Origin: Candidatus Sumerlaeota bacterium
GTDB lineage: Bacteria; Sumerlaeota; Sumerlaeia; MWCT01; JAUWMI01
DNA length: 64,000 bases
NCBI GenBank assembly: GCA_030613245.1
Contig: JAUWMI010000003.1
Span: 1,062 to 65,061, forward strand
Direction: 5' to 3'
This document shows, one piece after another, positions 2,495 to 64,000 of the stretch. The notes beneath the pieces are model-generated. The model did no database searches. It had not been told where the DNA came from and saw only the letters and a list, made by a program, of their open reading frames with translations. How positions within the stretch are numbered: the stretch's first letter is position 1; each line of letters begins with the position of its first letter. The position numbers and the translations under genes were made by a program.

Positions 2495-2525
2495 GTTACT
2501 GTACGTTTTCCTCGAGTGCGTGGCC

Positions 2526-4680: not shown

Positions 4681-5071
4681 GGCGGACAGTTCCACACGGG
4701 GGTAGGAGATGTCGCTTGGTATAGTAAACATCCTGTCGTTATTATACTTATCTATGGTCGTGGCACTGGTTCTCAGTATCAGCGAGCACGAGGAGATACG
4801 GCCTATTTTACGGGCAACGTTGCGGCGCTGGGGGTTAGGGGTGGGACTACTGATTGGCTTTGGGATACTTGTTTATTTGCTGGGCAACTTGTAGAATGGT
4901 AGAATGGCAGAAAGGCGGGTCTCTGAGGGCGCCAATTGTGAAAAATTGTGAAGTAAGACCAAAAAATCTTCTTGACATCAAGGAGACACGAGGGTAAAAA
5001 TCGGTCATAAGAAAATTGGCATCGGTCAATGTAGTGAGGAAGTAAATTTTAAAGAGAAAGGAGGGATAAGT

Positions 5072-5743: not shown

Positions 5744-5789
5744 GTGTAGCATCTGTTGGTGTTATAGACGGTTGATTGTATCTTCCAGG

Positions 5790-5823
5790 CAGACTGAGCT
5801 ACTCAGTCTGTCTGTTTTTTTTT
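5790..5823 (+). terminator. Rho-independent terminator downstream of the pseudopilin gene.
   Basis: Hairpin cagactgag-ctac-tcagtctg followed by an 11-nt T-run. Confidence 0.7.
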
Positions 5824-6067
5824 ATCTATTCCTACCTTGCACAAGTAGTTTACGCACCACATTGAACGTAGTCATCAAAACCTAGTTTAATCCGGTGTTG
5901 AAACGTTCTTTTCTCCAGCTGGTTTCAAGGCGGGATTATATGTGCTCTTAATTGGGAATTCGCAACATGGAAGATTGTTTATCCAGGGAATGAGGCCAAA
6001 AGGTATGCGTTGCATGGCTCTGGGGTGTTGCACATGGACGTGATGAAAAGCGAAGAGGCAAATGGGA

Positions 6068-6763: not shown

Positions 6764-6808
6764 AGGAGCAGTTTGCAGTGTAATGCGACCATAGAGGAGG
6801 GGCAGGCA

Positions 6809-7909: not shown

Positions 7910-7980
7910 AAATCATCACCTCTATTTCTGGAAGAAAATATTGTAAAATGCAATTTCTAATTTGCAATTTACAATTCAAC

Positions 7981-9255: not shown

Positions 9256-9290
9256 TTGCCTTTTCCCCTAACCGACAAACCGACAAACTG

Positions 9291-9932
9291 TCATGAGACC
9301 TCATTTTCAGACGGCTTGATGATGCTGTTGCCAACGGCGACAGTGAGTCGCGAGGTGCGCGCTCGCTCGGCGCGAATGATGGCTTTCGCTGTCTCAATGG
9401 TCTCATCGAGAGCATCATTTACAATTACATAATCGTACTTGCCTGTATGTTCTATCTCTTTGCGACCATTGGACAGGCGTACCTGAATTATCTCTTCGCT
9501 ATCGAGTTTTCGTTCGCGTAGCCGCTTTTTCAGCTCCGCGAGGCTTGGGGGTAGTAAGAATATAATCACCGCATCGGGTGACAGGCGTTTCACGTTTAGG
9601 GCACCCTGAACATCCAGGTCCAGCAGGACATCTCTACCTTTACTGAGCTTTTCTGCAATGAGATCTTTCCGGGTGCCGTAAAGGTAATTGTGTACCCATG
9701 CCCATTCGTAGAATTGGTTTTCTTTGATCATCCGCTTGAATTCCTCTTCAGTGACGAACCAGTACGACTGGCCATGCACTTCCCCTGAGCGTGGTGGGCG
9801 GGTGGTGGCCGATACGGAGTAATCCAGCGTGTCGTCTGAAGAGAGCAGAGCGCGCAGTATGGTTGATTTCCCGCCACCAGAGGGGGCAGAGACAACAAAT
9901 AAAATACCATTTCGACTGAGGGTAATGGTCAT
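9291..9932 (-). CDS. gmk: Guanylate kinase.
   Basis: P-loop 'SAPSGGGKST' and the motif 'YSVSATTRPPRSGEVHGQSYWFV'. Confidence 0.9.
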   Translation of the reverse strand: MTITLSRNGILFVVSAPSGGGKSTILRALLSSDDTLDYSVSATTRPPRSGEVHGQSYWFVTEEEFKRMIKENQFYEWAWVHNYLYGTRKDLIAEKLSKGRDVLLDLDVQGALNVKRLSPDAVIIFLLPPSLAELKKRLRERKLDSEEIIQVRLSNGRKEIEHTGKYDYVIVNDALDETIETAKAIIRAERARTSRLTVAVGNSIIKPSENEVS

Positions 9933-11055: not shown

Positions 11056-11084
11056 TGTGAATCACCTCAGTGTAAGAATTGTTT

Positions 11085-11149
11085 TGTAGGGGCGTTTAAC
11101 TAAACGCCCATTGAGCTGTGTCTGGGGCGTTCAATAGAACGCCCCTACA
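11085..11149. repeat. REP-like element made of two hairpins in a GTAGGGGCG...CGCCCCTAC frame (BIME-like unit).
   Basis: tgtaGGGGCGTTTAacTAAACGCCC ... GGGGCGTTCaataGAACGCCCCtaca. Both arms are perfect or near-perfect 9-10 bp stems. Confidence 0.8.
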
Positions 11150-11172
11150 ATGCGTATCATGGCAAGATGAAT

Positions 11173-11682
11173 TTAACGCCTCTGCTGATAGATATCTTTC
11201 CAATATAGACCATGCTCAAGGTTAAAATTCTTTGATGATGGGTTTTCTCTATCCAGCTCCCAGTTTATGGGATTGTTCTGAATGTATTCCCTAATTCGGG
11301 ACAATTCCTTCTCGTTACGAATAATGTGTTCGTAATAATTACGCTGCAATTTGAAATTTGAAAAACCATTTTTTCTGCACCAATTTGTCAATGCTGTCTT
11401 ATACGTGCGGATTATTACAGACAAGGTGTTCTTCCTTGGGGATATTCTCACATGATGTGTAGGGGCGTTTAAATAAACGCCCCTCGAGCTGTGTGTTGGA
11501 TTACCAGCTGATCTATCAGGGGCGTTCAATAGAACGCCCCTACAATGTGCATCATTTTCAGTAATCATTATTATTCCATGTAGGTGGTTTGGCATGACTA
11601 TAAATTCATCCAATTGGGTATTACCATGGTGCGCTGATATCTCCTGCCAAAACTTGTCTGCTTTCTTTCCTATTGTAGACAA
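11173..11682 (-). CDS. IS200/IS605-like Y1 (HuH) transposase of the REP-associated tyrosine transposase (RAYT) type. Its reading frame runs through a REP pair.
   Basis: HuH motif 'MPNHLHGIIMI'. The C-terminal 'FKLQRNYYEHIIRNEKELSRIREYIQNNPINW' matches the RAYT tail (catalytic Tyr; YI..NP..W). Residues ~47-85 (CRGVLLNAPDRSAGNPTHSSRGVYLNAPTHHVRIS) are the translation of the REP element at 11458-11544. That stretch is therefore either an in-frame REP insertion or a recently inactivated gene. Confidence 0.6.
   Translation of the reverse strand: MSTIGKKADKFWQEISAHHGNTQLDEFIVMPNHLHGIIMITENDAHCRGVLLNAPDRSAGNPTHSSRGVYLNAPTHHVRISPRKNTLSVIIRTYKTALTNWCRKNGFSNFKLQRNYYEHIIRNEKELSRIREYIQNNPINWELDRENPSSKNFNLEHGLYWKDIYQQRR
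11458..11544. repeat. REP-like two-hairpin element lying inside the RAYT ORF.
   Basis: tgtaGGGGCGTTTAaaTAAACGCCCC ...35 nt... aGGGGCGTTCaataGAACGCCCCTaca. Confidence 0.8.
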
Positions 11683-12020
11683 GATAACGATACCTTCTTT
11701 TACATGGCCAAGACTGCAGAAGCTATTGTATGTACAAATTGTTACAAAATATGCACCTGCCTCGGAATAATCATACCCTTTCAGCCGAATAACCTTTCTA
11801 TTTTACATATCGCCTCAATAGCTGAAAGAGATCATTTTAGCCAGAGGGATTGCTTGCTAAGTCATTGGCATATTTTGACGAAACACGATACTTCAACTTC
11901 TATAAGTACCGACCCCTAGAATATGCGCTCTCGAATGCAATTCCTCCAGCATGGTGACGCATATCATAAACGATGTTCTTTTAAAAAGTAAAGGGGAATA
12001 TCTTGTTCCTATTTGCTTTT

Positions 12021-12107
12021 TGTAGGGGCGTTTTAATAAACGCCCGATGAATAGGTCCGTCTTGAATTAAGCAGGTGTGTCTGGGGCGTTCAGTAGAACG
12101 CCCCTAC
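12021..12107. repeat. REP-like two-hairpin element overlapping the 3' end of the AI-2E transporter ORF.
   Basis: tgtaGGGGCGTTTTAATAAACGCCC ... GGGGCGTTCagtaGAACGCCCCTAC. The last 13 aa of the transporter ORF (RRGVLLNAPDTPA) are the repeat's translation. Confidence 0.8.
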
Positions 12108-13266
12108 GTTTGGCTTCGCGGAGCTTGTCCCACCAAAATTCTTTGATCAGGATGCGCACGACGCAGGCCACCGGAATTGCTACGATCATCCCCCCCAGTC
12201 CGAAGTAAGCGCCAATCATCAAAGCGAGCAACACGGCCAGGGGATGGAGTTCGCTGTTCTTGCCCACAATGCGGGGCGTGAAAATCATACTGTCAATGGC
12301 CTGGATCAGGGCAAACAGGCCGATTACCTCTGCTGAACCTATCAGCTTATCCGAAAGACTGGGGAAACCGCTGGACGCGAGTACCCAGATGAGCGATGGA
12401 ACTGCCCCAAGCAGAGGTCCAAGGTAGGGAATGATGTTACCGATGCCAGCCACGACGCCAATAAGAATGGCATACTTCTTCAGGCCGATAAGCAGCAGGC
12501 CAATCGTGGTCAGCAGTCCTACAAGGCAGCAAATAGTCAACTGGCCCCGCAAAAACCCACCAACTGCCTCATCAATCCGGTTGAGAATGCTGAATACTCG
12601 TTCTTCGTGCTTCGTCGGGATAACTGTTGATACCAGACCCTTGATCTTATGGAAATCCAGCAGGAAGTAAAAATTGATTATGACCACAAGAATCACGAAT
12701 GAGGTCAACGAGAAAAATAATCCGAATCCGGCGGCCACTCTTTTGGCCACCGCACCTGCTACAGAGACTCCCTCTGCGGCTGCGCCGTGCAGTCCCGGAA
12801 GCATGGCGCCGAGAACGCTGCGAAGATCAGTTCCCAGGGATTCTAATGTGTCTGTGATCTTCTGCATTTGCGCTTCGTTCAGTGTGATATCGTATCTCTT
12901 CATGAGCGTGTTGAGCTGAGCCGGTATGACTTCGCTGAGGCGCTTAATGAGTTCGCTGATCTGATGGTAGAGATTGGGTAGTAAGAAGAGCATGAACGCG
13001 GCGATCAACAGCAGAATGATGACGTAGAATGTGACAAGACCCAGGATGCGCGAGAGTTTGAGCCGCTGCTGAACGAACGTCACAATGGGATTAAAAAGGT
13101 AGGCAATAATCAATGCGACGCAGAACGGTGCCAGGATGTTGGCAATTATGCGCAAAACAGGGCTGAGCTGCACCAGTGCATACACTGCAACGGCGATGAT
13201 AAGCATGTATCCGATCACGAGCAGCGTTTTCTTTAGCTTCGTATCAAGATCAGGTATGCTTCCCAT
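12067..13266 (-). CDS. AI-2E family transporter (UPF0118/PerM-like).
   Basis: 399 aa, ~8 TM segments. 'ILAPFCVALIIAYLFNPIV' and the overall topology are typical of AI-2E family permeases. The annotated C-terminus runs into the REP element, so the true stop may be functionally the same. Confidence 0.7.
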   Translation of the reverse strand: MGSIPDLDTKLKKTLLVIGYMLIIAVAVYALVQLSPVLRIIANILAPFCVALIIAYLFNPIVTFVQQRLKLSRILGLVTFYVIILLLIAAFMLFLLPNLYHQISELIKRLSEVIPAQLNTLMKRYDITLNEAQMQKITDTLESLGTDLRSVLGAMLPGLHGAAAEGVSVAGAVAKRVAAGFGLFFSLTSFVILVVIINFYFLLDFHKIKGLVSTVIPTKHEERVFSILNRIDEAVGGFLRGQLTICCLVGLLTTIGLLLIGLKKYAILIGVVAGIGNIIPYLGPLLGAVPSLIWVLASSGFPSLSDKLIGSAEVIGLFALIQAIDSMIFTPRIVGKNSELHPLAVLLALMIGAYFGLGGMIVAIPVACVVRILIKEFWWDKLREAKRRGVLLNAPDTPA

Positions 13267-14509: not shown

Positions 14510-14621
14510 AAATAATCACGCTTGAGAAATTATTTGCAGGGCAAAAGCATTTGCCGCACTCTGCCGCTTATCATGCACACATACATGGGTTACCCTAACG
14601 AATGAGGGTAGAGATTGTAAA

Positions 14622-14894
14622 CAGGTTTTCGTCACGATGCGATCTGGAGGCGCTATCTTTATGCTCACACTGAACAAGGTATGTTGCACAGGCAAGGATG
14701 CCTGTGCCACCAATTACAATGGGCAATGCAAGAGGAAATACGTGAAAATGAAAAAATTAAAAATGGTAGAACAGGCTTCCAGCCTGTTATCAGGTTTTCG
14801 TCACGATGCGATCTGGAAGCGCTATTTTTATGCTCACACTGAACAAGGTATGCTGCACAGGCAAGGATGCCTGTGCCACCAATTACAATGGGCA
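14622..14894. repeat. Two ~105-bp direct repeats (14622-14726 and 14791-14894, ~95% identical). Each contains the perfect hairpin CACAGGCAaggaTGCCTGTG.
   Basis: Direct sequence comparison. The repeats lie in the intergenic region between the GT39-like gene (upstream on the minus strand) and the HEXXH peptidase gene start. Confidence 0.8.
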
Positions 14895-16592: not shown

Positions 16593-16803
16593 GAATTATG
16601 TACATTCCTGAATCAGTAGTGCGAGTTGCTCCTGCTTGGATAACGCGCCGGAGGCGCATAAACGCATACAATCCCGTTTATGCAAAGAAGCCGGAGGAAA
16701 GGCAAGGGGAAAAAATCAGATGGGTGTGGAGTGATTTATGCGCCTACGGCGCATTCACGTCGTGGCGTCGTGGTTTGATAGTTCTTTTTGTTAGGTGCTA
16801 TTA

Positions 16804-16990
16804 GTCTGTGTTAATCTGTGTTCATCTGTGGTTTCAATATATGTTAATATCGCAACCGCTGATACACGCAGATACACGCGGATTTTGTAGGGGCACGCCG
16901 CTGCGTGCCCCTACCTTATAAATCTCTGTGTCTCTGCGTCTCTGTGGCTGTTTTTTACCACGGAGCATGCGCAAGGCCGATGGAGCAACG
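16804..16990. repeat. Copy A of a ~190-bp composite repeat. It contains tctgtgtt(a/c)a iterons and an embedded GC-type REP hairpin (16886-16915).
   Basis: >90% identical to 17889-18085. The palindrome GTAGGGGCACGC-cgct-GCGTGCCCCTAC sits inside it. Confidence 0.85.
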
Positions 16991-17097
16991 TAATTGTTGC
17001 AAAATATAAGAATTCGTGTTGACTTTTTGGAAGGCATGATAATAGCATTAGGACGAAAAATTGGAAGATTAGAGACAGCAAGCTCATTTCTTAAATC

Positions 17098-17307
17098 ATG
17101 GGTAAGGTGTGGGAAGCTAAAGACATGATACAAAAAATTGTGACCAAACGTAGCTTGCGAGATTCTCGTTCCAAGAATCATGACCTGGCCTATTGGATGG
17201 GCAAGAGCCCCGAGGAACGAGTAGCCACTGTAGACTATTTGCGAAGGCAGTACTATGGAAGTTCAGCCAGACTTCAGAGATCTGCTCGGGTTGTTCAACG
17301 TACATAA
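17098..17307 (+). CDS. Small ORF overlapping the nucleotidyltransferase start. It is a possible cognate partner (antitoxin-like).
   Basis: 69 aa ORF that overlaps the downstream gene by 53 nt in another frame. It is basic, with 'KSPEERVATVDYLRRQYYG'. There is no strong family signature. Confidence 0.3.
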   Translation: MGKVWEAKDMIQKIVTKRSLRDSRSKNHDLAYWMGKSPEERVATVDYLRRQYYGSSARLQRSARVVQRT

Positions 17308-17701
17308 AGTTGAATATATGATTGTAGGGGCCTATGCGCTAGCCTTTCACGGGGTGCCGCGTTTTACTGGTGATCTTGACATTTTTATCAAACCCGATTC
17401 TGAAAACGCTCGGCGCATTTTGCAGGCGCTCGACGAATTTGGTTTTAAATCTGTTGGTCTGACCTTAGAGGATTTTCAGAGCACCGACAAGGTTGTCCAA
17501 CTCGGCGTTCCTCCGGTTCGTGTAGATATCATAACATCTCTGACTGGTGTCTCATGGGAAGAGGCGTTTTCAGGCAGAGCTGAAGGTAAATACGGAGATA
17601 CGCCAGTTTACTACATTGGGCGTGAACAGTTCATTGCGAACAAACGTGCCATGGGAAGAAAGAGAGATTTTGCTGACTTAGAAGCTCTTGGTGAAGAGTG
17701 A
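17255..17701 (+). CDS. Minimal nucleotidyltransferase (Pol-beta superfamily) domain protein, probably a toxin-antitoxin component.
   Basis: 'IVGAYALAFHGVPRFTGDLDIFIKPD' fits the G[SA]x9-13Dx[DE] NTase motif (GDLDIF). 148 aa, stand-alone, flanked by repeats. Confidence 0.6.
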   Translation: MEVQPDFRDLLGLFNVHKVEYMIVGAYALAFHGVPRFTGDLDIFIKPDSENARRILQALDEFGFKSVGLTLEDFQSTDKVVQLGVPPVRVDIITSLTGVSWEEAFSGRAEGKYGDTPVYYIGREQFIANKRAMGRKRDFADLEALGEE

Positions 17702-17888
17702 TGTCGCGAGTTCAGGGTTCGGTAAACAGAGCGCTCCAAAGCTTAAAGGCTCCCTTCTAAAGCGGCTACGAACTTCCCTACCTTCCTCCCAGCGGCTATA
17801 AATTCCAACCCCGCTGGTAGAATACATCCATCCATTTCAATTTCCTGCAATGTGTAATTACGCCACAGAGACACGGAGTGTGTGCATA

Positions 17889-18085
17889 AGTTTTAATCCG
17901 TGTTCATCTGTGTTCATCTGTGGTTTCAATATATGTTAATGTCGCAACCGCTGAAGCACGCAGATACACACGGATTTTGTAGGGGCACGCCGCTGCGTGC
18001 CCCTACCATATAAATCTCTGTGTCTCTGCGCCTCTGTGGCTGTTTTTCTTACATATCACCACGGAGTCACGGAGTAGGTACAAAA
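17889..18085. repeat. Copy B of the ~190-bp composite repeat, with an embedded GC-type REP hairpin (17978-18007).
   Basis: Near-identical to 16804-16990. A third, shorter copy at 18091-18215 lacks the ~90-bp REP-containing core. Confidence 0.85.
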
Positions 18086-18090
18086 GTTTT

Positions 18091-18215
18091 AATCCGTGTT
18101 CATCTGTGTTAATCTGTGGTTTCAATCTGATCTATTTGTGATTTATATCTCCGTGTCTCTGCGCCTCCGTGGCTGTTTTTTACCACGCAGCATGCGCAAG
18201 GCCGAAAGAGTAGGC
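18091..18215. repeat. Copy C of the composite repeat. The REP-containing core is absent.
   Basis: The 5' 34 nt and 3' ~70 nt align to copies A and B. The middle ~90 bp (including GTAGGGGCACGC...) is replaced by 26 bp. Confidence 0.8.
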
Positions 18216-18476
18216 CAATTGGTGAAAAATACGAGAGTCGAGCTTGACTTTTTGGGGGCTATAATAATAAGTTTATAATCGCATAATTGGTTGAATTACC
18301 GTGAATTGCTGCGCTTGGGTATGAAGAGTGGTTTTCCCTGAAGAAATCCCCATTGGTGCATATTGGTGATTTGAGTGAAATTAAGGATCACGCAGCTTCA
18401 GGCGTTCACCTGAGTTAGACAGCATAAAATGAATCGTTTGTAGAATCGTTTAGGCCGGATAATCAGAGGTAAGGTT

Positions 18477-19490: not shown

Positions 19491-19554
19491 GGCGAACGGC
19501 AAGGTGCAGCTGCCTTGGTATTCCGCGTCGCTCCATACCAAGCAGCTGAGCTGC
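19491..19554. repeat. ~60-bp hairpin-forming repeat, copy 1 (the second copy is at 20851-20910).
   Basis: AGGTGCAGCTGcCTTGGTATtccgcgtcgctccATACCAAGCAGCTGAGCT. This is a long imperfect stem. An identical core occurs after the next gene. Confidence 0.8.
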
Positions 19555-19582: not shown

Positions 19583-20809
19583 ATGGTGAAACGCCTTTTG
19601 ATTAGCGTGTTTATGTTTACTCTCTGGCTCACGCTGTGCGCTTCAGTTCATGGTTACATTTCCAACCCATTCAATGCAAAGCGTCTCCTTGATTCGGCAG
19701 ATTTAGTCTGCCATGGAAAGGTTGTTTCAGTTACCGCGCATGAAGTCGAGAAGGACTCCCGATTCCATCCGCCTTTGGAAACTGAGGGAGGTATGGCGAG
19801 GATACGCATAATCAATATCATCAAGGGAAAGGTTCCTGGTGTTATTGACGTTGTATTCAGGAAGCCTGCTTCGACAGTGCTTTACACTCAACTGGCGCAA
19901 GACGAAGAGTGTATTCTTTTCTTAAGGTCAACAAAAGGATACTACCGGTTTGTTGACGACCACAACGGCAAACTCTCTATTCCGCCTCATAAGGCGATTC
20001 AGTACAAGTCCGAATCCCCTGAAGATCGAATGGTTGCGGAGCTGATATTTGGCACTGAGGCTGATTCGGGCCGTATCCGGCTCGTCTGTGCCGAACAGCT
20101 CGGAGACTTTGCGCATACTGAGGCGGTAGCTCGTCTGAAGGCTCTTAGCTTAGTCAACGGCATGGAGCTGCAAGGCGTCGCCTACGCAGCTTTGATTCGG
20201 CTGGACCACCCCCCGGAGGCCAAAGAGCTTGCCGGTTTCTTTGCACGGCAAGACAATACTGGGTCTTCCGAGCGATTCGGTACAACAAAATACAGCAATG
20301 GGCACCTAAAGGGAAAGATTCTCATCGAGCTTCACCAACGATTCAACGTGATATGCCGAGACTTTAATCTTCCTTACAGCAGTTCTAAGCATGTCGCCCG
20401 TAAGGAGGCCGCAAGAAAAGCGGCAGGGCAATGGAAAGACTTCGACCTCATCCACTTTCTTAACTCAGCGCCGTGGAAAGATTGCGATACCAGCTCTGTC
20501 ATCTACAACCGGGTCATAGCCGACATTGTGGGCGACCAAATTGATAGACAGGGGGCGCCCGCTGTTAGCAATAAGACATATCGCAAGGGAAGCAAGTCGA
20601 TCGTGTTGGGCCTGCTTGAAAGTGAAAATAGCGAGATTCGTTGCGCGGCAGCACGCGCTATAGACAGAATGATTGCCGAACCCCACAAGTTTCCCTATCC
20701 ACAATACAGAAACGGTGTTAGAAAAATAGAGGAGGTTGATGCGTACGTTAATGCCTGTCGCGAATGGATTGCTGCTCACAAAGAGTGGGTCAATGAAAAC
20801 GAGAAATAG
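19583..20809 (+). CDS. Secreted hypothetical protein with HEAT/PBS-lyase-like helical repeats.
   Basis: Signal peptide 'MVKRLLISVFMFTLWLTLCASVHG'. The middle region has helical repeats with 'RLVCAEQLGDFAHTEAVARLKAL' HEAT-like units. Confidence 0.4.
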   Translation: MVKRLLISVFMFTLWLTLCASVHGYISNPFNAKRLLDSADLVCHGKVVSVTAHEVEKDSRFHPPLETEGGMARIRIINIIKGKVPGVIDVVFRKPASTVLYTQLAQDEECILFLRSTKGYYRFVDDHNGKLSIPPHKAIQYKSESPEDRMVAELIFGTEADSGRIRLVCAEQLGDFAHTEAVARLKALSLVNGMELQGVAYAALIRLDHPPEAKELAGFFARQDNTGSSERFGTTKYSNGHLKGKILIELHQRFNVICRDFNLPYSSSKHVARKEAARKAAGQWKDFDLIHFLNSAPWKDCDTSSVIYNRVIADIVGDQIDRQGAPAVSNKTYRKGSKSIVLGLLESENSEIRCAAARAIDRMIAEPHKFPYPQYRNGVRKIEEVDAYVNACREWIAAHKEWVNENEK

Positions 20810-20850: not shown

Positions 20851-20910
20851 GAGCAGAGAAGGTGCAGCTGACTTGGTATTCCGCGTCGCTCCATACCAAG
20901 CAGCTGAGCT
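20851..20910. repeat. ~60-bp hairpin-forming repeat, copy 2.
   Basis: AGGTGCAGCTGaCTTGGTATTCCGCGTCGCTCCATACCAAGCAGCTGAGCT, the same core as 19491-19554. Confidence 0.8.
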
Positions 20911-24188: not shown

Positions 24189-24839
24189 TCAAAATGCCGT
24201 TTTTTGAGAAAGAACGATGTCGCCTTCAGAGACTGTTCCGTTCGTTGGATCGTACGGCATATGGTTCGAGAAGACGGAATAGAGCTCATAAAGGTTCACA
24301 AGCCCGTCAGGGCCAACAGAGAGGAGTTTCCATTCGCCGTATTTGGCAATGCCAGCCAGGCATGCGTCCTCACTGACCGAGGGGCGCCATCCAATCCAAC
24401 TCGGGCCGAGGCCACCCCAATTCTCAAGGTTTGCCTCATAGTTGAGATAGCGATATTGGAAGAAATAGCGGAAGTAGGTAGTAACCTGGCGCTCGGAACG
24501 AAATGGGTCAAAGAAGAGTTCAGCCGAGACGTATGGCACAGGCGTGGTGAGCTGAATTGTGGGATACCATGGCCAGCCATCTTCGACGTCATTAGGGTAA
24601 TGAAGGTTGTCAATGCGATAGGATTCGAGCGCCATGGCCAGGGCGGTCATGTCGGTTTTGGCTGCGGCAATGCGATGGTTGACAAGGGCCTGGAAAAAGT
24701 TTGATGCGGTAGCTGCACCCAGTGTCGCTACCATCAGGCCGATGAGGCACCATTTGGCCATGGTTTCGATTTTCAGGATCATAATCCGCTGGAGAAATAC
24801 GCGGAAGCGCGCCCGCACAGTCTGAAGTTTTTGTGTCAT
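24189..24839 (-). CDS. GspG-like pseudopilin paralog with a non-canonical N-terminus (no G|FTLIE cleavage motif).
   Basis: Full-length homology to the 5072 and 50878 proteins ('ALESYRIDNLHYPNDVEDGWPWYPTIQLTTPVPYVS...GPD...YDPTNGTVSEGDIV'). The N-terminus is '...MAKWCLIGLMVATLGAATAS', so the TM helix is retained but the prepilin peptidase site and Glu+5 are not. Confidence 0.7.
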   Translation of the reverse strand: MTQKLQTVRARFRVFLQRIMILKIETMAKWCLIGLMVATLGAATASNFFQALVNHRIAAAKTDMTALAMALESYRIDNLHYPNDVEDGWPWYPTIQLTTPVPYVSAELFFDPFRSERQVTTYFRYFFQYRYLNYEANLENWGGLGPSWIGWRPSVSEDACLAGIAKYGEWKLLSVGPDGLVNLYELYSVFSNHMPYDPTNGTVSEGDIVLSQKTAF

Positions 24840-24927
24840 TTCTAGTCCTCCTGGAGTGGCCTAGGGTTTTTAGGTTTTTTCGCTCAGCCTTGTTGAAATT
24901 CGCAGAGGGCTATCTCTGCGCCTGCCT

Positions 24928-25521
24928 TTATTGTTTCTGATAACGAATGATATCGCCTTCAGAGTCAATTCCATTGGTTGGATCGTAAAGTAAATTGTTC
25001 GTGAAGAAGAAATACTGAATATTGTCATAGGATACATGCATATCAGGCCCAACAGAGAGCAGTTTCCATTTGCCGTATTTGGCCATGCCAGCCAGGCACT
25101 CCTCCTCACTGACCGCAGGGCGCCAATGAATCCACCCCGGGCCGACGCTCTTCCAACGCTCAAGGTTTGCCTCGTAGTTGATGTAGCGATGGAGGCGCCA
25201 GTAGCGGTGATAGGTAGGGGCTTGATATTCCGCACCACGAAAGGGATCGTGAAAGAGTTCGGGCGAGACGTAAGCGACCGGTGTGGTGAGTTGTACCGTG
25301 GGGAACCATGGCCAGCCATCTTCGACGTCGTTTGGGTATTTGAGATGGTCGAGGTGATACGCTTCCAGCGCCATGGCGAGCACAGACAGCTGGGTTTCGG
25401 TGGTGGCGATACGCTGACGTATGAGCGCGTCAAGGTAATTTATTTGTGTTGCGGCGCACAAGCTGACTGCCAGTACTGCACCGAGAAATAATTTTATGAA
25501 TAATCCATGTTTGCGTATCAT
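24928..25521 (-). CDS. GspG-like pseudopilin paralog with a degenerate prepilin signal (G-LFIKL, no Glu+5).
   Basis: 'MIRKHGLFIKLFLGAVLAVSLCAA...' aligns to 'KKGFTLIELLIVVAIIAILAA' of the canonical paralog. The C-terminus has 'SVGPDMHVSYDN...YDPTNGIDSEGDIIRYQKQ'. Confidence 0.7.
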   Translation of the reverse strand: MIRKHGLFIKLFLGAVLAVSLCAATQINYLDALIRQRIATTETQLSVLAMALEAYHLDHLKYPNDVEDGWPWFPTVQLTTPVAYVSPELFHDPFRGAEYQAPTYHRYWRLHRYINYEANLERWKSVGPGWIHWRPAVSEEECLAGMAKYGKWKLLSVGPDMHVSYDNIQYFFFTNNLLYDPTNGIDSEGDIIRYQKQ

Positions 25522-33611: not shown

Positions 33612-34029
33612 TCGTCGATCCCAACTATTGTTTATATGGTTTCCGTATAAGAAGCTTTAACCGGCTATTGCGCCAGATAACTTCTCTCTTAGCGATGTAA
33701 CACATTTGCGCTTACCTGGCTCAAAGAGCGTCTGGCGGGCTTCGTACCCCTTTGCCTCGTCGATTGAGAACATGGGTATAGATCATCGCCTTTTTCACAT
33801 CTCTAGCCTAACTAACAAACAAGAATATCCCAGCCTCTAATATAATTGCAAGTTTTTTCTGTTATGCCAATCCAGGTGCGAGCATAATATAGCCCAAATT
33901 TTGCAGTTGAGTTTAATGAAAGTGACAAGATCATTATGCAAAATACAGAAAAAGCTTTGATTAGTATTTTACCACGAAGGCACTAAGGCACGAAGGCCAC
34001 GAAGATTTCTTGACAAAAAAATGACAGAA

Positions 34030-34567
34030 ACTATTAGACAGGATGAAAAAACGTAAAGAATCTTGTAAATCTTGTAAATCATGTCCAAAAAAAAGTAAAA
34101 AGAAGGACAGAAATTATCAGACAGGATTGACAAGATTAACAGGATTTAAAGACGTAAAGAATCTTGTAAATCATGTAGATCTTGTCCAAAAGAATTTAAA
34201 AAGAAGCACAAACATTATTAGACAGAATTAACAAGATTAACAGGATTTAAAAACATAAAGAATCTTGTAAATCATGTAAATCTTGTCCAAAAAATTAAAA
34301 CGAAGCACAAAAACTATCAGACAGGATTGACAAGATTAACAGGATGAAAAACGCAAAGAATCTTGTAAGTCATGTAAATCGTGTCCAAAAGAAATGACAA
34401 GAATTATTAGACAGGATTAACAAGATTAACAGGATTTAAAGACGTAAAGAATCTTGTAAATCTTGTAAATCATGTCCCAAAAGAAATGACAAAAATTATT
34501 AGACCGGATTAACAAGATTAACAGGATTTAAAAACGTAAAGAATCTTGTAAATCGTGTCCAAAAAGC
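34030..34567. repeat. Minisatellite of ~5.5 tandem copies of a 95-100-bp unit. It is not a CRISPR array.
   Basis: The unit is approximately agacaggattaacaagattaacaggatttaaagacgtaaagaatcttgtaaatcatgtaaatcttgtccaaaagaaatgacaagaattatt. Both the 'repeat' and 'spacer' parts are conserved between units. Each unit has the internal inverted repeat acaagatt/aatcttgt. Confidence 0.85.
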
Positions 34568-34712
34568 ATTCCCCGATCTTCAGAGCCGCCAGGGAAAATT
34601 GCTTTTGACATTAGGGGGTCGTTATGAGAAGGATATTTTTACATCCTGCCAGGAAGGTAGGGCGTGAATATGGCGTATTTAAAACGGGTGAATTTGTAGA
34701 GCGGTTGGTGAT

Positions 34713-34970: not shown

Positions 34971-35443
34971 TCACCAGGAAGATCATTATATCTGGCTCTT
35001 TTTCAAATGAGTCAGCAGTTTGCTCAAGAAATTATCCCCCTCACCTCAATCCTCTCCCACAAGGGGAGAGGAGGCAAGGTTAATGACTGAAGATGGCGAT
35101 CCACAAGGGGATGAGGAAGTAAGGTTGGGCAATGACTGAAGGTTCCGAATAGCAAAGAGCACCCTGTCAATTCACGCCATCTTCTTGAAGGAACCTTCAA
35201 GCACTAAAAGCAAAATGCAGTTGGGGAAGAAGTCGTATTATTGATCTTCGTATAAATAAAGAAACAGCCAAAGCCGCTGAAGGCCTTATTTTTGTGCGAA
35301 CGCTTGGCCTTCGACTGTGCCATTCAACGTGGCACGTGCATCACGCCCCAGGCGCATTTTCCAATTGCGCGTGTAGATTCATCCGTCTAGGCGAATGCCA
35401 CGCATAGACCAAAAGAGGTTCTTGGGATTCTATAGTTGGTAGT

Positions 35444-35474
35444 TGTAGGGGCGTTTAATTAAACGCCCCCTACA
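35444..35474. repeat. Single REP-like palindrome.
   Basis: tgtaGGGGCGTTTaattAAACGCCCCctaca, a 14-bp near-perfect palindrome. Confidence 0.8.
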
Positions 35475-35578
35475 TGCTGACCTATCTGACAAAGGGCCTT
35501 ATACCTTATATCAATGTTGGAAAGACATAATACAGCCCACGGGTTATTCGGGATTAAGAGCGAGGTTAGATTAGCACG

Positions 35579-57883: not shown

Positions 57884-58115
57884 AAAAGCCCGACGCCTTG
57901 GCTTCTTCTATTCGGGAATTGTTAATAATGTAGCGTCTGCCTCAGGCAGGCTATTGGGGAAACTCGAAAAACCAATGCAGAATTCCGTTTCCGCTTGACC
58001 GGATTCCGCATTTGAGAGATTCTTCGGACGATCACACGGCCTCAAGGTGTGAGAAAGAAACCATATAAACCATAGTTATATTGATGTAAGTTCATATCGA
58101 GAGAAAGGAGGGAGT

Positions 58116-59648
58116 ATGGCAATGAAAAAAGAAAAAAATGAAAGAAAAAAAAGGAGACTTACTACAGCTTTTGGAATCCCTGTTGCTGACGACCAGAACA
58201 GTCAAACCGCTGGTCCACGGGGTCCTGTACTAATGCAGGACGTTCACTTGCTGGAGAAGTTAACCCACTTCGACCGTGAGCGCATTCCTGAACGAGTGGT
58301 GCATGCAAAAGGAGCGGGAGCGTACGGCTATTTTGAGGTTACTGCCGATGTGACCAGGTACACCAAAACCAAGTTTCTTTCCGAAGTAGGCAAGCGCACC
58401 GAAGTGTTCTTACGATTTTCCACGGTTGGCGGTGAGCGGGGTTCTGCTGATGCTGCACGAGATCCACGCGGCTTTGCAATCAAATTCTACACGGAAGAAG
58501 GCAATTATGACCTGGCAGGGAACAACACGCCGGTATTCTTTATCCGCGACCCCCTTAAGTTTCCCGACTTTATTCACACTCAGAAGCGGAATCCTGCGAC
58601 CAATCTGCCTGATCCGGATATGTTTTGGGACTTTCTGTCCCTGACACCCGAATCCATTCATCAAGTCACAATCCTTTTCTCCGACAGGGGAACACCAGCT
58701 ACCTTTCGGCACATGAACGGCTACAGTAGCCACACCTTCAAGTGGTACAATGACACGGGCAAGTACTTCTGGGTACAGTACCATTTCAAGACGGATCAGG
58801 GTATCAAGAACCTGACCCGAGAGGAATCGAGGCGTCTTTGCGGCGAAGATCCGGATCACGCCACTCGTGACCTGTATAAGGCCATCGAGCAGGGCGACTA
58901 TCCTTCCTGGACTCTTGAGATGCAGATTCTGACACCAGAGAAGGCCAAGGATTTCCCTTGGGATATCCTTGACATCACCAAAGTCTGGCCACATGGAGAG
59001 GTCCCGCCTATTAAAGTTGGAAAGCTGGTTCTGAACCGGAACCCGGTCAACTATTTTGCAGAAGTGGAACAGGCGGCTTTCTGCCCGGGAAACGTGGTTC
59101 CCGGCATCGCCATCTCACCGGACAAGATGTTGCAAGCGAGGGTTTTTTCTTACCACGATACGCACATTCACCGACTGGGACCCAACTATCATCTGATTCC
59201 AGTTAACGCGCCCAAACACGCTCCTGAAAACAGTTACCAGCGTGACGGGCTCATGCGCGTTGACGCCAACGCGGGTGGCGGACCCAACTACTGGCCGAAT
59301 AGCTTTGGCGGATTTGGGCCGGACCCGACGGCAGGCGAGCCTCCTTTTGAGCTTTCCGGCCAGGCCGGTCGTCACCCCTTCACACATCCAAATGACGACT
59401 TTGTGCAGGCGGGTACCCTCTACCGCAAAGTCATGTCAGACAAGGATCGAGATCACCTCATCGGCAACATTGTGGATCACCTGGGCAAGGCACAGAAACG
59501 CATCCAATTGCGCCAAACCGCCTTGTTCTACAAGGCAGACAAGGAGTACGGCCGCCGCGTAGCAGAAGGAATAGGCCTCGATGTGAATGAAGTCAAGCGA
59601 TTGGCGGATATGTCTCAAGAGGAACGGGCAAAGGCTACCGAGAAGTGA
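58116..59648 (+). CDS. katA: Monofunctional heme catalase.
   Basis: '[25 protein letters not shown]' (distal His region) and '[17 protein letters not shown]' (proximal Tyr region). Confidence 0.92.
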
Positions 59649-59880
59649 ATCTCGTCTTATCTGTGGAGAGTGATTGTCAGATCTGTTTTTTCAGACAAAT
59701 CGTTACAGATTAGCGCATGAATATTGTCAAATAGCAACCGGCTGCACCAGACCCGCCGCGGCGGGCGGGTCGTCCCTACATTCTGAATTCTTAATGCTAC
59801 TAAGGCGCGTGCGCGTCGTGCCGTCGTGGTTTAATAGTTTTTTTGTCAGGTGCTCTTATTATAATATGGAGGAGGTCAAT

Positions 59881-60618
59881 ATGAAGACCATAACTTTATT
59901 TATGTTTTTCCCGATCATGATGTTCGCATCTTTTTCAGCCGCGCAAAATCAATTTGAGTCTGATACAATCAGCACTTCATCAGGGGATTTGAAAATCACC
60001 TTTGTCGGCCATGGGACTTTGTTATTTCATTTTAATGAAAAGGTAATCCATGTTGATCCAGTCAGTGGATATGCAGACTATTCAAAATTGCCCAAGGCCG
60101 ATATTATTCTTGTCACTCATCATCATGGTGATCACTTTGACAAAAAAGCATTAGAACAGATCAAGACACCGAACACGGATTTGATATTGACAGAAACGTG
60201 CGCTGAACAAATCCAAAACGGTATTGTAATGAAAAATGGTGATGTGAAGACAATTAAAGGAATAAAAGTGAAAGCCGTTCCAGCGTATAACATTGTTCAC
60301 AAAAGAGCGAATGGTGAGCCTTTTCACCCAAAAGGTATTGGTAACGGCTATGTGATAACATTTGGGGATAAGAAAGTATATATCGCTGGAGATACAGAGA
60401 ATGTTCCAGAAATGAAGGAGTTATCTGGAATAGATTGCGCCTTTTTACCGATGAACTTACCTTATACCATGACACCCGAAATGGTTGCTGAGGCAGTCAA
60501 GATGTTTAATCCTAAAATCCTTTATCCATATCATTTCGGAAATACGAACGTAAATGAGCTGGTTGAACTATTAAAAGATAAAAAAGACTGCGAAGTACGC
60601 ATCAGGAAAATGCAGTAG
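59881..60618 (+). CDS. Secreted MBL-fold metallo-hydrolase.
   Basis: Start trimmed to the ATG at 59881 with an RBS (GGAGGAGG). Signal peptide 'MKTITLFMFFPIMMFASFSAAQ'. 'ILVTHHHGDHFD' is the HxHxDH zinc motif. The coding sequence is AT-rich. Confidence 0.75.
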   Translation: MKTITLFMFFPIMMFASFSAAQNQFESDTISTSSGDLKITFVGHGTLLFHFNEKVIHVDPVSGYADYSKLPKADIILVTHHHGDHFDKKALEQIKTPNTDLILTETCAEQIQNGIVMKNGDVKTIKGIKVKAVPAYNIVHKRANGEPFHPKGIGNGYVITFGDKKVYIAGDTENVPEMKELSGIDCAFLPMNLPYTMTPEMVAEAVKMFNPKILYPYHFGNTNVNELVELLKDKKDCEVRIRKMQ

Positions 60619-60737
60619 CTAAATATTAAGGAGGGATTCGGGGACAGGCGACTATTTTTCCCTATCGCTTTTTGAGAATTAGCTTTTGAATATCGTAAAT
60701 AAAAAAGTAGCCTGTCCTTTTTCCAAAAAGTAATTGA

Positions 60738-60765
60738 GTAGGGACAGATTATAATCTGTCCCTAC
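60738..60765. repeat. REP-like palindrome of the GTAGGG...CCCTAC type.
   Basis: GTAGGGACAGAT-tataa-TCTGTCCCTAC, a perfect 12-bp stem. Confidence 0.8.
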
Positions 60766-60786
60766 AATATAGGCCACAGACCACGC

Positions 60787-60910
60787 ATCATGAGTAGTCA
60801 GCTCTTTCTGGCTAGCGTAAGCTCGTGGTGATAATCTTGGAGGGTTTTCAGGGTAGGTTTGGTAGATCGGAGGGCTTTAATGCCCTCAACAGCGGCCTTG
60901 GCGGCGGCTG
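60787..60910 (-). pseudogene. Relic fragment encoding a CarB C-terminus (~40 aa), a divergent duplicate of the carB 3' end.
   Basis: The minus-strand translation '...ISAAAKAAVEGIKALRSTKPTLKLTLQDYHHELTLARKS*' matches the carB C-terminus '...IAAARAAVEGIESLRTTKPTLKALQDYHHELDIARKKCVK*' at 61674-61800. DNA identity is about 75%. Confidence 0.7.
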
Positions 60911-61007
60911 AGATTGGTCGTTAGTCTTCGCATATATCAAAAAAACGGTTGACTCCCGGTTCTGTTATACGTATACTATACGTGTAATAAATAAAGGAGA
61001 ACTGGCG

Positions 61008-61238
61008 ATGCAGAAAAAATTAACCATCACTATTGATGAGGAAGTTTATTTTGGACTGCACAATGTCATAGGTCCAAGAAAAATTAGCAAATTTGTTGAA
61101 AACTTGGTTCGTCCACACGTCGTCAAACATGAGCTCGAATCGGCGTATGCTGAAATGGCGAAAGATAAACATCGGGAAAAGGAAGCTCTGGAATGGGCTG
61201 AGGCCACCTTCGGAGACAGCGCTCATGAAAAGAGGTGA
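61008..61238 (+). CDS. MazE/PemI-like antitoxin.
   Basis: 76 aa ORF immediately upstream of, and overlapping, the MazF/PemK-family toxin gene. The N-terminal '[15 protein letters not shown]' fits a swapped-hairpin/RHH antitoxin. Confidence 0.65.
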
Positions 61239-61548
61239 AGTGTGGTGGGTAAATTTTGGCCGTTCCATTGGTGGAGAGATTCGCAAGAAACGCCCTGCAG
61301 TAATAGTTAGCAATGATGCCTCCAATAAGTTCCTGAATAGAGTTCAGGTTGTTCCGCTTACCGGTAAAATTGACCGCCTCTATCCCAGTGAAACATATGT
61401 ACTTGTTAATCGTAAACAAAGCAAAGCCATGGCTGATCAATTAGCAACAGTAAGCAAATTACGCCTGTTCAATAAAATTGGCTTTCTTTCGACAGACGAC
61501 ATGCAAAAGGTTGGAGAGGCGCTGAAGATTCAACTTGATCTTAAATAG
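61225..61548 (+). CDS. MazF/PemK-family endoribonuclease toxin.
   Basis: '[46 protein letters not shown]' is the PemK/MazF signature. The start is trimmed to the ATG at 61225, which overlaps the antitoxin stop by 14 nt. Confidence 0.85.
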
Positions 61549-61596
61549 AAGCCTAACCAGCGGCTCACGAATTTTTCTGAATTTTTCAAATCCCGT

Positions 61597-61655
61597 TGTA
61601 GGGGCAGGCCTTGTGCCTGCCCTATTATTTTGGGCACGCCGCGGCGTGCCCCTAC
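61597..61655. repeat. Pair of GC-type REP-like hairpins.
   Basis: tGTAGGGGCAGGCcttgtGCCTGCCCtat ... GGGCACGCcgcgGCGTGCCCCTAC. These lie between the mazF stop and the carB stop. Confidence 0.75.
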
Positions 61656-61673
61656 GATTTCATGTTATGTCCT

Positions 61674-64000
61674 TCATTTCACACATTTCTTTCTGGCGAT
61701 GTCCAGCTCGTGGTGGTAATCCTGCAGGGCTTTCAGCGTGGGTTTGGTAGTTCGGAGCGATTCGATACCCTCAACAGCGGCGCGTGCTGCGGCAATAGTG
61801 GTGAGCAGCGTAATGTTGCGGGCAATGGCGTTGCTGCGAATCGCCTTCTGGTCGGCTTTTGAGTCTTTGTCAAGCGGTGTGTTGATGACCATTTGAATCT
61901 CGTTATTGATCATTAAGTCAACGACGTTTGGGCGCCCCTCAGCGATCTTATAGACTATCTGGGTCTGGATGCCGTGGGATTGCAGGAACTCGAGTGTGCC
62001 ACGTGTGGCGTAGAGCCGGAAGCCAAGGGCGTGGAGGCGTTTAGCAATCGGCAGGAAGCGCGGCTTATCCTGGTCGTGGAGGCTGATGAAAATTCCGCCC
62101 TCGAGCGGTAGTGCGGAGTTCGCTGCACTTTGTGATTTGGCAAAAGCTAATCCATAATTCGGGTCTATGCCCATAACTTCGCCTGTTGAACGCATTTCGG
62201 GGCCAAGGATGATATCACATCCTGGAAATTTGGCGAAGGGGAGGACTGCTTCCTTAACTGTGTAGAAGGGGATGCGTGGTTCTTCGGTGAAGCCAAGCTC
62301 CTCAAGCGTTTTTCCTACCATAATGCGGGCTGCCAACCGGGCAATAGGAATACCAATTGATTTGCTCACGTAGGGCACAGTGCGGCTCGCGCGTGGATTG
62401 ACCTCCAGCACGTAGACCTTACCATCCTTCACCGCGTATTGAATATTCATCAGGCCGCGCACGTTTAAACCGCGTCCAAGTGCCTCGGTATACTGACGAA
62501 TGGTCTGGAGGATCTCGGGCGACAGGGAGCGCGGCGGAATCACGCACGCGCTATCGCCCGAGTGAATTCCCGCCTGCTCGATGTGTTCCATAATTGCGCA
62601 GATCACCACGCGATTTCCGTCTGCCAGGGCGTCAACATCCATCTCGATTGCTTCGTCGAGAAATTTGTCAATCAGAATGGGATGCTCTGGCGATACTTCT
62701 CCCGCCTCTTTCATAAATACGCGCAGCTGCGCATCGTCATAAACAATCTCCATGGCGCGTCCACCGAGCACGTAGGATGGACGAACCATCAGGGGGTAGC
62801 CGATTGAATGTGCAATTCCCTCGATCTCTTCGTAGGTATACCCAGCACTATTGGGTGCCTGGGGAATGCCGAGCTGGGCAAGCAACGCTCCGAAGCGTTT
62901 GCGATCTTCCGCGAGGTCAATACTTTCGGGTGAAGTGCCCAGGATGTTCACGCCTGCAGCCTCCAGGAACTTTGCCAGATTCAGCGGTGTCTGACCGCCG
63001 AATTGGACAATCACGCCGAATGGCTGCTCGTTCTCGATGATGTGGAGTACGTCCTCTGTGGTCAGGGGCTCGAAGTAGAGCTTGTCGGCGGTGTCGTAGT
63101 CGGTGCTTACGGTTTCAGGATTGCTGTTTATCATTATGGTTTCATAGCCATCTTTCTTAAGAGCGATCACTGCCTGGACGCAGCAGTAGTCAAACTCAAT
63201 GCCCTGGCCGATGCGATTTGGCCCTCCGCCAAGAATGATGATCTTTTTTTTGTCAGAGGGATGCGATTCGTTGGTCTGGTCATAGGCCGAGTAGAAGTAG
63301 GGCGTCTGGGCCAGGAATTCACCTGCGCAGGTGTCAACGGCTTTGAAGACCGGTCGAATGCCCAGATGCTTGCGGAGGCGGCACACCTGCGCTTCGGTCG
63401 TGTGCGTGAGGTGGGCAATTTGGCGGTCGGAGAACCCGTTCTGTTTGGCTTTGCGGAGCAGCTTCGCACAGAATTCGCGCTCCTCCTGCTCGCCGGGCTG
63501 AGGAGCAGCGGACTCTGGTTGGTCTAGTTTGTCAAGACATCCGACCAGGAACGATGAAGTCTTCACCTGGTTTTCGACCTCAATTATTTCACGGATGTTC
63601 TCGATAAACCAGGGATCGATGCCGGTGAGGTTTGCTATTTCGTCAATGGAGAGCCCTTCGTAGAGGGCGTACTTGACGTAAAAGATGCGTTCGGGATGGG
63701 GAGTATTCAGGCGACGAATGAGTCGTTCGCGATTGAACTTGTCCTTCCCGTCGGCACCCAGGCCATAGCGGCCAATTTCAAGGGAGCGGAGGCCTTTTTG
63801 CAAGGCTTCCTTGAACGTGCGGCCAATGCTCATAGTTTCGCCGACGGATTTCATCTGCGTGCCAAGGGTAGGATCTGAGCCCGGGAATTTCTCGAATGTA
63901 AATCGCGGTATTTTCACCACACAGTAGTCAATAGTCGGCTCGAAGCATGCTGGCGTCTTTTTTGTGATATCGTTCGGCAGCTCATCGAGGCGATAGCCGA
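61674..64000 (-). CDS. carB: Carbamoyl-phosphate synthase large subunit, partial (N-terminal ~300 aa lie beyond the window edge).
   Basis: Strong matches throughout ('KIPRFTFEKFPGSDPTLGTQMKSVGE', second ATP-grasp domain, MGS-like C-terminus). The ORF continues upstream of the first Met through to position 64000 without a stop ('GYRLDELPNDITKKTPACFEPTIDYCV' matches the CarB oligomerisation domain). Confidence 0.95.
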   Translation of the reverse strand, partial: GYRLDELPNDITKKTPACFEPTIDYCVVKIPRFTFEKFPGSDPTLGTQMKSVGETMSIGRTFKEALQKGLRSLEIGRYGLGADGKDKFNRERLIRRLNTPHPERIFYVKYALYEGLSIDEIANLTGIDPWFIENIREIIEVENQVKTSSFLVGCLDKLDQPESAAPQPGEQEEREFCAKLLRKAKQNGFSDRQIAHLTHTTEAQVCRLRKHLGIRPVFKAVDTCAGEFLAQTPYFYSAYDQTNESHPSDKKKIIILGGGPNRIGQGIEFDYCCVQAVIALKKDGYETIMINSNPETVSTDYDTADKLYFEPLTTEDVLHIIENEQPFGVIVQFGGQTPLNLAKFLEAAGVNILGTSPESIDLAEDRKRFGALLAQLGIPQAPNSAGYTYEEIEGIAHSIGYPLMVRPSYVLGGRAMEIVYDDAQLRVFMKEAGEVSPEHPILIDKFLDEAIEMDVDALADGNRVVICAIMEHIEQAGIHSGDSACVIPPRSLSPEILQTIRQYTEALGRGLNVRGLMNIQYAVKDGKVYVLEVNPRASRTVPYVSKSIGIPIARLAARIMVGKTLEELGFTEEPRIPFYTVKEAVLPFAKFPGCDIILGPEMRSTGEVMGIDPNYGLAFAKSQSAANSALPLEGGIFISLHDQDKPRFLPIAKRLHALGFRLYATRGTLEFLQSHGIQTQIVYKIAEGRPNVVDLMINNEIQMVINTPLDKDSKADQKAIRSNAIARNITLLTTIAAARAAVEGIESLRTTKPTLKALQDYHHELDIARKKCVK

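Follow-up and report, generated by a model that had tools for sequence, protein, structure and literature searches.

A 64,000-nucleotide (nt) stretch of contig JAUWMI010000003.1 from a Candidatus Sumerlaeota bacterium (assembly GCA_030613245.1; hereafter, the window) carries a mazEF-like toxin-antitoxin (TA) module at the 3' end of carB, the gene for the large subunit of carbamoyl-phosphate synthase. The target gene is intact, and the insert is bounded by direct repeats of the carB 3' end, one of them the working end of the gene and the other a displaced, non-coding copy (hereafter, the relic). We lean towards host recombination as the process that would have inserted this module into the carB 3' end, followed by further recombination within the repeats.

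Layout of the carB 3' end and the mazEF module

The features of the locus are listed below; coordinates are window positions unless another contig is named.

61674..64000, minus strand: 3' part of carB (carbamoyl-phosphate synthase large subunit), with the Pfam domains CPSase_L_D1/D2/D3 and MGS; the gene runs past the window end
61674-61676, minus strand: carB stop codon
61688..61793, minus strand: repeat copy A, the working last ~36 codons of carB (direct repeat D1), marked by a jump in mismatches and in synonymous divergence (dS) relative to the related scaffold L162
61598..61655, no strand: compound element like repetitive extragenic palindromes (REP), two hairpins between GTAGGGGCA...TGCCCCTAC (fold z = -4.1)
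61550..61569, plus strand: motif AGCCTAACCAGCGGCTCAC, immediately 3' of the mazF stop, its only occurrence within the window
61225..61548, plus strand: mazF, predicted PemK/MazF-type endoribonuclease toxin, 107 amino acids (aa) (PF02452, E = 8e-26)
61008..61238, plus strand: mazE-like antitoxin gene, 76 aa, weak NF050104 match, 14-nt overlap with mazF
60949..60987, plus strand: promoter-like site (TTGACT, 17 nt, TATACT) with two TATACGTRTA copies
60909..60926, plus strand: junction segment TGAGATTGGTCGTTAGTC, 18 nt, leading from the relic to the cassette
60798..60908, minus strand: repeat copy B, the displaced carB 3' end (36 codons and stop), non-coding
60738..60765, no strand: perfect 28-nt REP-like palindrome GTAGGGACAGATTATAATCTGTCCCTAC, 3' of the relic stop
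60642..60717, no strand: long imperfect hairpin resembling a miniature inverted-repeat transposable element (MITE), with arms GGACAGGCGAC... / ...GTAGCCTGTCC, between the relic region and the following gene (inverted repeat I7)
59881..60618, plus strand: low-GC gene for a hydrolase of the metallo-beta-lactamase (MBL) fold (Pfam Lactamase_B_3)

The two carB ends form a 106-nt direct repeat (60803-60908 and 61688-61793, offset 885 nt) with 78% identical DNA. With the CarB tail as query, tblastn of the 61.7 kb downstream of carB returned a single match, the relic (60908-60804, 35 aa, 80% identity, E = 7e-16), and no further carB-end copy in the window; blastn of the carB end against the same 61.7 kb yielded E = 2e-20. 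The repetition of the CarB C-terminus on the minus strand, downstream of mazEF and the REP hairpins, had been recognized in a preliminary description of this DNA, and the similarity is beyond chance. That description located and read the relic correctly in the main, but its end is at 60798 rather than 60787 (it had been placed at 60787-60910), 'KLTLQ' in its peptide should be 'KTLQ', and the DNA identity, put at ~75%, measures 78%. The relic translates as AAAKAAVEGIKALRSTKPTLKTLQDYHHELTLARKS followed by a stop (in-frame codons 60908-60801, stop 60798-60800). An in-frame stop immediately upstream rules it out as a gene, and its presence in independent assemblies (L162, L181, L187 and L188, see below) rules out an assembly artefact. 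No second intact carB was found.

The mazE and mazF genes are on the plus strand, convergent with carB. The mazF product covers the full PF02452 profile (90.8 bits against a cut-off of 23.1), which places it in the PemK/MazF fold, and also matches the NCBIfam MazF family (E = 2e-9); its homologues, ~107 aa in length, number in the thousands. The mazE product has no Pfam hit and matches the NF050104 MazE family weakly, although over its full length (E = 7e-5, 23 bits, below the cut-off of 65); in every homologous locus fetched, an open reading frame (ORF) of 76 or 83 aa lies upstream of mazF, the arrangement of a small overlapping antitoxin gene. Judging from family membership, MazF would be an mRNA endoribonuclease neutralized by a labile MazE, and the TATACGTRTA pair is probably the MazE/MazEF operator. 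The promoter-like site is 98-99% identical among three lineages, and homology with distant mazEF loci extends no further left than this site. At the other side of the module, both AGCCTAACCAGCGGCTCAC and the REP-like element at 61598-61655, the first hairpin of which resembles a mazF terminator, are kept beside the cassette in L162, L164, L181 and L187.

The module resembles chromosomal mazEF/pemIK systems in that a PemK-fold toxin gene follows a small overlapping antitoxin gene, with its own promoter bearing a repeated palindrome, in a compact unit found in scattered contexts. It differs from these systems, among which are TA cassettes of chromosomal integrons, in the weak match of its antitoxin to MazE. 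The same cassette, 93.6% identical and aligned to window positions 60900-61632, is embedded in unrelated DNA on both sides in contig L164. More distant mazEF homologues (86-87%) also lie in unrelated contexts, with homology that extends from promoter to stop only and no flanking repeats. No relative of the module was found among viral contigs and plasmids.

Related lineages and discordant divergence

Relatives of the locus were found through MazF homologues and are short metagenomic contigs or scaffolds of metagenome-assembled genomes (MAGs). They fall, together with the window, into four lineages: the window itself, L162/L163, L181/L188, and L187. L162, an NCBI MAG scaffold, is 92-94% identical to the window in the catalase, MBL and carB genes (carB 94% at the DNA level, 1099 aa) and has the order catalase - AlkP - YibE_F - MBL - MTTB - relic - mazE - mazF - carB - carA. 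L163 carries mazE - mazF - carB and stops short of the relic; L181 and L188 both have the order hairpin - palindrome - relic - mazEF - REPs; and in L187, relic - mazEF is retained, with other DNA directly after the relic stop. The junction GGCGGCGGC followed by TGAG(A/C)TTGGTCGTTAG(A/T)C is common to the window, L162, L181, L187 and L188, that is, to every contig that reaches the relic. Because junction, relic and cassette are common to all lineages, the insertion is old and occurred once, before at least four lineages diverged.

Seven alleles of the 105-nt repeat were compared. The functional end in the window differs from each of the other alleles in 19-26 of the 105 nt, whereas distances among the other six are 3-17 nt. 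Relative to L162, the window has 21 mismatches in 61698-61797 but only 2 in the 117 nt of 61800-61917, so that the divergent tract begins at 61797, at the 5' edge of the repeat. The differences between the functional ends of the window and L162 are distributed over codon positions as 3/2/14 (14 of the 19 at third positions, p = 0.0009), and those between the functional end and the relic within L162 as 1/0/9 (p < 0.001); these tests rest on 10-21 changes. Because the differences are mostly at third positions, the working end in the window derives from a carB that was more distant and also functional. The working carB end is thus the imported copy, and the relic, which resembles the lineage's own end, is native-like. 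Alignment to relatives, which the preliminary description had proposed as the way to identify the native copy, thus points to the relic, and calling the relic 'divergent', as was done there, is misleading because the divergent copy is the functional end. The proposed order of an intact hybrid gene, then the cassette, then the displaced fragment is supported by the start of the tract at 61797 and with the third-position changes.

The two window copies, compared with each other, have a dS of 0.74 and a ratio of nonsynonymous to synonymous divergence (dN/dS) of 0.23. A very distant donor, first read from this divergence within the window, was discarded once relatives were included: the functional end of the window is the outlier, and the ancestral copies were a few percent apart.

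The window also lacks ~230 nt that L162 and L163 carry between the carB stop and the REP-like element (window 61674-61690 against L162 10464-10620). This deletion fuses ...ARK to KCVK-stop and so creates the new CarB tail of the window; the tail ...DIARKKCVK-stop is specific to the window lineage, and in L181 the fused sequence is found as DNA that does not code.

Divergence between the window and L162 is strongly discordant along the locus. The dS is 0.23 for carB upstream of the repeat, 0.20 for the catalase gene and 0.27 for the MBL gene, but 0.044 for mazE and 0.014 for mazF, and 0.72 for the repeat part of carB. The cassette is thus ~10-fold below, and the functional carB end ~3-fold above, the backbone, and both depart significantly from the carB backbone (Fisher p = 5e-6, cassette; 2e-5, repeat). 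Pairwise identity across three comparisons is 83-88% in the relic, against 98-99.7% in the promoter and mazF next to it. Within the 105 nt of the repeat, 15 site pairs fail the four-gamete test, and the L187 relic carries states that are otherwise typical of functional copies. These patterns show that the cassette was recently exchanged between lineages and that the repeat alleles are mosaic and reshuffled, including between functional and relic positions. Hand parsimony on the alleles assigns 5 nonsynonymous and 3 synonymous changes specifically to the relic since the split of the window and L162; these counts are as expected for decay, and the relic appears to be decaying slowly.

The bacterium has no close relative in the species-representative genomes or JGI metagenome contigs, where the best CarB C-terminus matches reach 63-67% identity and are Sumerlaeota-like; the 160 loci found there lack a relic and are uninformative about an empty site. 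Searching proteins with the CarB C-terminus retrieved nothing but distant and partial sequences, the 94%-identical gene of L162 not being among them.

A perfect 55-nt repeat of the MTTB gene end in L162 (8790-8844 / 9011-9065), considered as a second relic, was rejected: it abuts a gap of 100 N (9066-9165) and is most likely a scaffolding artefact. In L187, positions 1-345 hold a truncated ORF that by eye resembles the N-terminus of an IS5-family transposase, and is interrupted by a MITE-like element with GGGGACAGC ~260 nt ahead of the relic.

Host recombination and its alternatives

In the explanation that we favour, a module of ~0.8-1.0 kb would have recombined into the carB 3' end via its own carB homology, as the layout suggests. 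The module would have comprised the last ~36 carB codons with the stop, the REP hairpins, mazF, mazE and the promoter in front of it, and a short stub resembling attC. It may have arrived by single-crossover (Campbell-type) insertion of a circle bearing a carB arm or, alternatively, by homology-facilitated illegitimate recombination (HFIR) of a linear fragment from a relative with the arrangement carB-REP-mazFE. The far end would have been joined at GC-rich Ala codons (GCCGCCGCC), beside hairpin-forming DNA, by the recombination machinery of the host and with no dedicated integrase; carB would have stayed intact because the incoming DNA supplied the gene end. Since the insertion, the two repeats of ~105-125 nt have kept recombining, and the working end in the window was replaced from a more distant carB. 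If MazEF functions as its family membership suggests, it would penalize loss by recombination between the repeats, so that a small insert persists; in the window, where no identical run between the repeats exceeds 14 nt, the module is probably trapped at its site. Crossovers anywhere in the repeat, as in host homologous recombination, fit all the observations, and the joint, with its microhomology of 2-5 nt to the attC-like site of L164, is compatible with illegitimate joining but is weak evidence for it.

HFIR in natural transformation of Acinetobacter and S. pneumoniae is said to have been described in 2002 by de Vries and Wackernagel and by Prudhomme and colleagues. The carB locus shares with this process a one-sided homologous anchor (carB), a foreign tail joined at short GC-rich microhomology near hairpin DNA, and no dedicated recombinase. 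However, HFIR is known from laboratory crosses, whereas here it would be reconstructed from a scar, and the later exchange of cassettes and repeat alleles lies outside its classical description. The term itself occurs in PMC6382021.

Several points weigh against host recombination as the favoured explanation. No empty site, which the preliminary description had suggested seeking, was found in close relatives: all are occupied, and the closest ones that reach the site all carry the relic. No circular form of the module was seen, and neither relic nor cassette signal was detected at 160 more distant carB loci from species-representative genomes and JGI contigs, so that there is no sign of a general carB-targeting process. 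The junction microhomology is 2-5 nt only, as judged against the L164 cassette copy from another context; the donor arrangement is drawn from the layout; and the match of tract borders to repeat edges rests on one or two comparisons. Strain-chimeric assembly could add to the mosaic pattern. Finally, an integrase acting in trans is possible, the recombinase search having covered ORFs of about 100 aa or more in the 64 kb only.

A more far-reaching form of the explanation by host recombination, which we put forward tentatively and regard as doubtful, is that the module is a minimal integrase-free mobile element, that is, a TA pair with ~110 nt from the 3' end of an essential gene, carB, as its homology arm. 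Such an element would be excised as a circle between the repeats and re-inserted by RecA-type single crossover in related lineages, acquiring a new arm from its latest host in each cycle, with its loss penalized by MazEF.

The preliminary description had interpreted the locus as the footprint of an integrating element. In this scenario, an integrase would have used an attP mimicking the carB 3' end, as e14 and phage 21 do in icd, with most of the element, int included, later deleted or the remnant mobilized in trans, and with the addictive mazEF surviving. The layout is identical to that of icd-e14-icdC in E. coli, where e14 or phage 21 integrates at the icd 3' end (PMC13626634; Hill et al. 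1989, as cited there): the 3' end of a housekeeping gene is targeted, the gene remains intact with a substituted end, and a displaced C-terminal fragment is found at the far side; furthermore, synonymous differences cluster in the replaced segment, and recombination between the copies yields chimeric alleles (PMC13626634). At carB, too, the imported functional end begins at the repeat edge, and the cassette is younger than the backbone. TA modules are the expected survivors of element decay. Nevertheless, we consider integrase-mediated insertion unlikely. Unlike e14, which is a prophage of 15 kb that encodes an integrase and an excisionase and has a defined att core, the insert here is ~0.8 kb and holds mazEF only. 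A scan of 46 window ORFs (subject to the size limit given above) yielded no match to a recombinase or transposase family, none lies between the repeats, and no recombinase was evident among the Pfam-annotated genes of L162. No identical or conserved crossover core was found in the repeats: the two copies agree over at most 14 consecutive nt in the window and 25 nt in L162, these runs lying at different positions, and the seven alleles have no invariant block in common. Nor does the element-borne gene end, the putative arm, co-evolve with its cargo (dS of 0.72 against 0.014-0.044 for mazF and mazE). A fixed crossover core at the 5' side would predict gene ends as alike as the cassette, and one at the 3' side, gene ends as alike as the rest of carB (dS 0.23); because neither is seen, a fixed crossover is unsupported. 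Moreover, the reduced form is already present in all four lineages.

Islands at the ends of protein-coding genes, namely GIsul2 in guaA, SGI1 in trmE and the dusA islands, are similar to the carB locus in being inserted at a gene end, with the reading frame restored and direct repeats at the flanks (PMC9376610, PMC8409611 and PMC4482086). Such islands are defined by a tyrosine integrase of their own and by att repeats that are short and identical, neither of which was found when looked for at carB.

The discordant divergence could also be compatible with a static scar, in which one ancient insertion was followed by vertical descent, with the module immobile and with allelic recombination between strains and gene conversion producing the discordance. 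The junction common to all lineages, the mosaic alleles, the neutral-looking 5:3 ratio of relic-specific changes and the failure to find an empty site are all as such a scenario would have it. We hold it to be quite unlikely, however, given that the tract borders (~60927, ~61680 and 61797) coincide with repeat or cassette edges, that the relic differs so much more than the adjoining cassette, which is 98-100% identical, in the three pairwise comparisons, and that the cassette is found elsewhere too, in L164.

Movement of mazEF by the integron integrase IntI, with the carB end (GCT followed by GTTGAGG) as a secondary site, is suggested by a 61-nt site at positions 300-360 of L164, immediately upstream of the mazE promoter, which has canonical attC motifs and spacings: GCCTAAC, 5 nt, GCTCCAGC (8-nt L box), centre, GCTGAGC, 6 nt, GTTGGAC. 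In the window, a right-half-like stub precedes the promoter, where TGAGATTGGTCGTTAGTC resembles the right half (L', 6 nt, GTTRRRY) of the site in L164, and a left-half-like stub follows mazF, where AGCCTAACCAGCGGCTCAC resembles the left half of an integron attC (RYYYAAC, 5 nt, L box), a resemblance in motif and spacing only. The L164 site is, however, the sole mazEF-associated match of a crude attC finder applied to 11 loci and the window; no complete attC-like site was returned at the window locus, in L162 or at the distant mazEF loci, and the other candidate in the window (33806-33912) is unrelated to the module. The L164 site folds with an energy no better than that of shuffled sequences (z = -0.56), the relic boundary is 15 nt from GTT, and recombination by IntI gives no 106-nt duplication. 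There is no integron platform at the locus: no intI was found among the scanned window ORFs and no co-oriented cassette array is present, the neighbours being carB and the MBL hydrolase gene. An integron origin is therefore very unlikely.

Local tandem duplication of the carB end, with neutral decay of one copy and independent insertion of mazEF, is barely credible: although direct repeats around one- or two-gene modules are common in this genome, synonymous changes predominate between the copies (1/0/9 by codon position in L162; a dN/dS of 0.23 in the window), the outlier is the functional copy and not the relic, and more steps are needed than for single-crossover insertion.

Neighbouring DNA and significance of the locus

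Beyond the relic, the 28-nt palindrome at 60738-60765 and the AT-rich MBL gene are both as given in the preliminary description. The palindrome is identical in L162, L181 and L188, and the Logan contig L081 ends within it. The window has 8 GTAGGGRCA heads where 0.45 would be expected, and they make up four palindromic sites, including 60738-60765 and 61598-61655; short, GTAG-headed, intergenic and present in many copies, these palindromes are of the type of REPs and bacterial interspersed mosaic elements (BIMEs). No REP-associated tyrosine transposase (RAYT, Y1 transposase) turned up among the scanned window ORFs, a search limited to the window. Further GTAGGGGCG hairpins lie at 11080-12119 and 35439-35485, where another REP-like family (TGTAGGGGCGTTTAA.TAAACGCCCC and GGGGCGTTCAATAGAACGCCCCTAC) is present in several copies and in both orientations, like BIMEs. 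Elements with GGGGACAGC that are related to the hairpin at 60642-60717 are found in L162 and L187. No tRNA gene and no Rfam match was found at the locus.

The MBL gene has a GC content of 0.378, against 0.504 for the window, and its homologues (81-82%) sit in unrelated contexts; it is an acquired neighbour outside the module. These homologues were also tried as a path to an empty carB site and dropped because their contexts are unrelated. In more distant relatives, the MBL gene is located elsewhere.

The DNA downstream of carB is a spot of gene flux. Window positions 57950-60640 and L162 positions 951-9420 differ in gene content: in L162, the catalase and MBL genes are separated by genes for an alkaline phosphatase and YibE_F, and MBL is followed by MTTB; the window has none of these three. 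Synteny between the two is lost upstream of the catalase gene, and MITE-like repeats are found at the breakpoints. A 54-nt repeat (16735-16788 / 59791-59844, 81% identical) precedes both the MBL gene and the region of an AbiEii-like module.

This second module, at 16801-18269, consists of two genes within long direct repeats, a 69-aa ORF (17098-17307) and a weakly AbiEii-like nucleotidyltransferase gene (17255-17701). The repeats are 16801-16955 / 17893-18047 (155 nt, 94%) and 16919-17044 / 18144-18269 (126 nt, 79%), and each holds a GTAGGGGCACGCCGCTGCGTGCCCCTAC palindrome and a promoter-like TTGACT...ATAAT, the layout being, as at carB, that of a module enclosed by a duplication. A 52-nt hairpin-containing direct repeat (19501-19552 / 20859-20910, 98%) surrounds a single gene (19583-20809, 408 aa, no family match). 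Additional repeats include a 110-nt tandem repeat (14616-14725 / 14785-14894, 95%) upstream of a membrane glycosyltransferase-like gene and an intergenic tandem array upstream of dxs (34033-34575), with ~6-10 AT-rich units of ~92-101 nt (GATTAACAGGATTTAAAGACGTAAAGAATCTTGTAAATC...). Tandem paralogous genes occupy 24201-25416 (24.2-25.4 kb), and NosD-like beta-helix paralogues lie at 25.6-28.0 kb.

Gene-end duplications are usually interpreted as footprints of integrases. Here, such a duplication surrounds a 0.8-kb TA pair, with no recombinase found among the scanned window ORFs, and the pattern of divergence at the locus does not fit a fixed crossover site. The locus shows that a relic may be the native copy and the working gene end foreign. 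If the module indeed moves by host recombination acting on a borrowed gene-end arm, selfish TA genes would have a very cheap means of spread and persistence within a clade, and caution would be called for before every gene-end relic is designated an att site.

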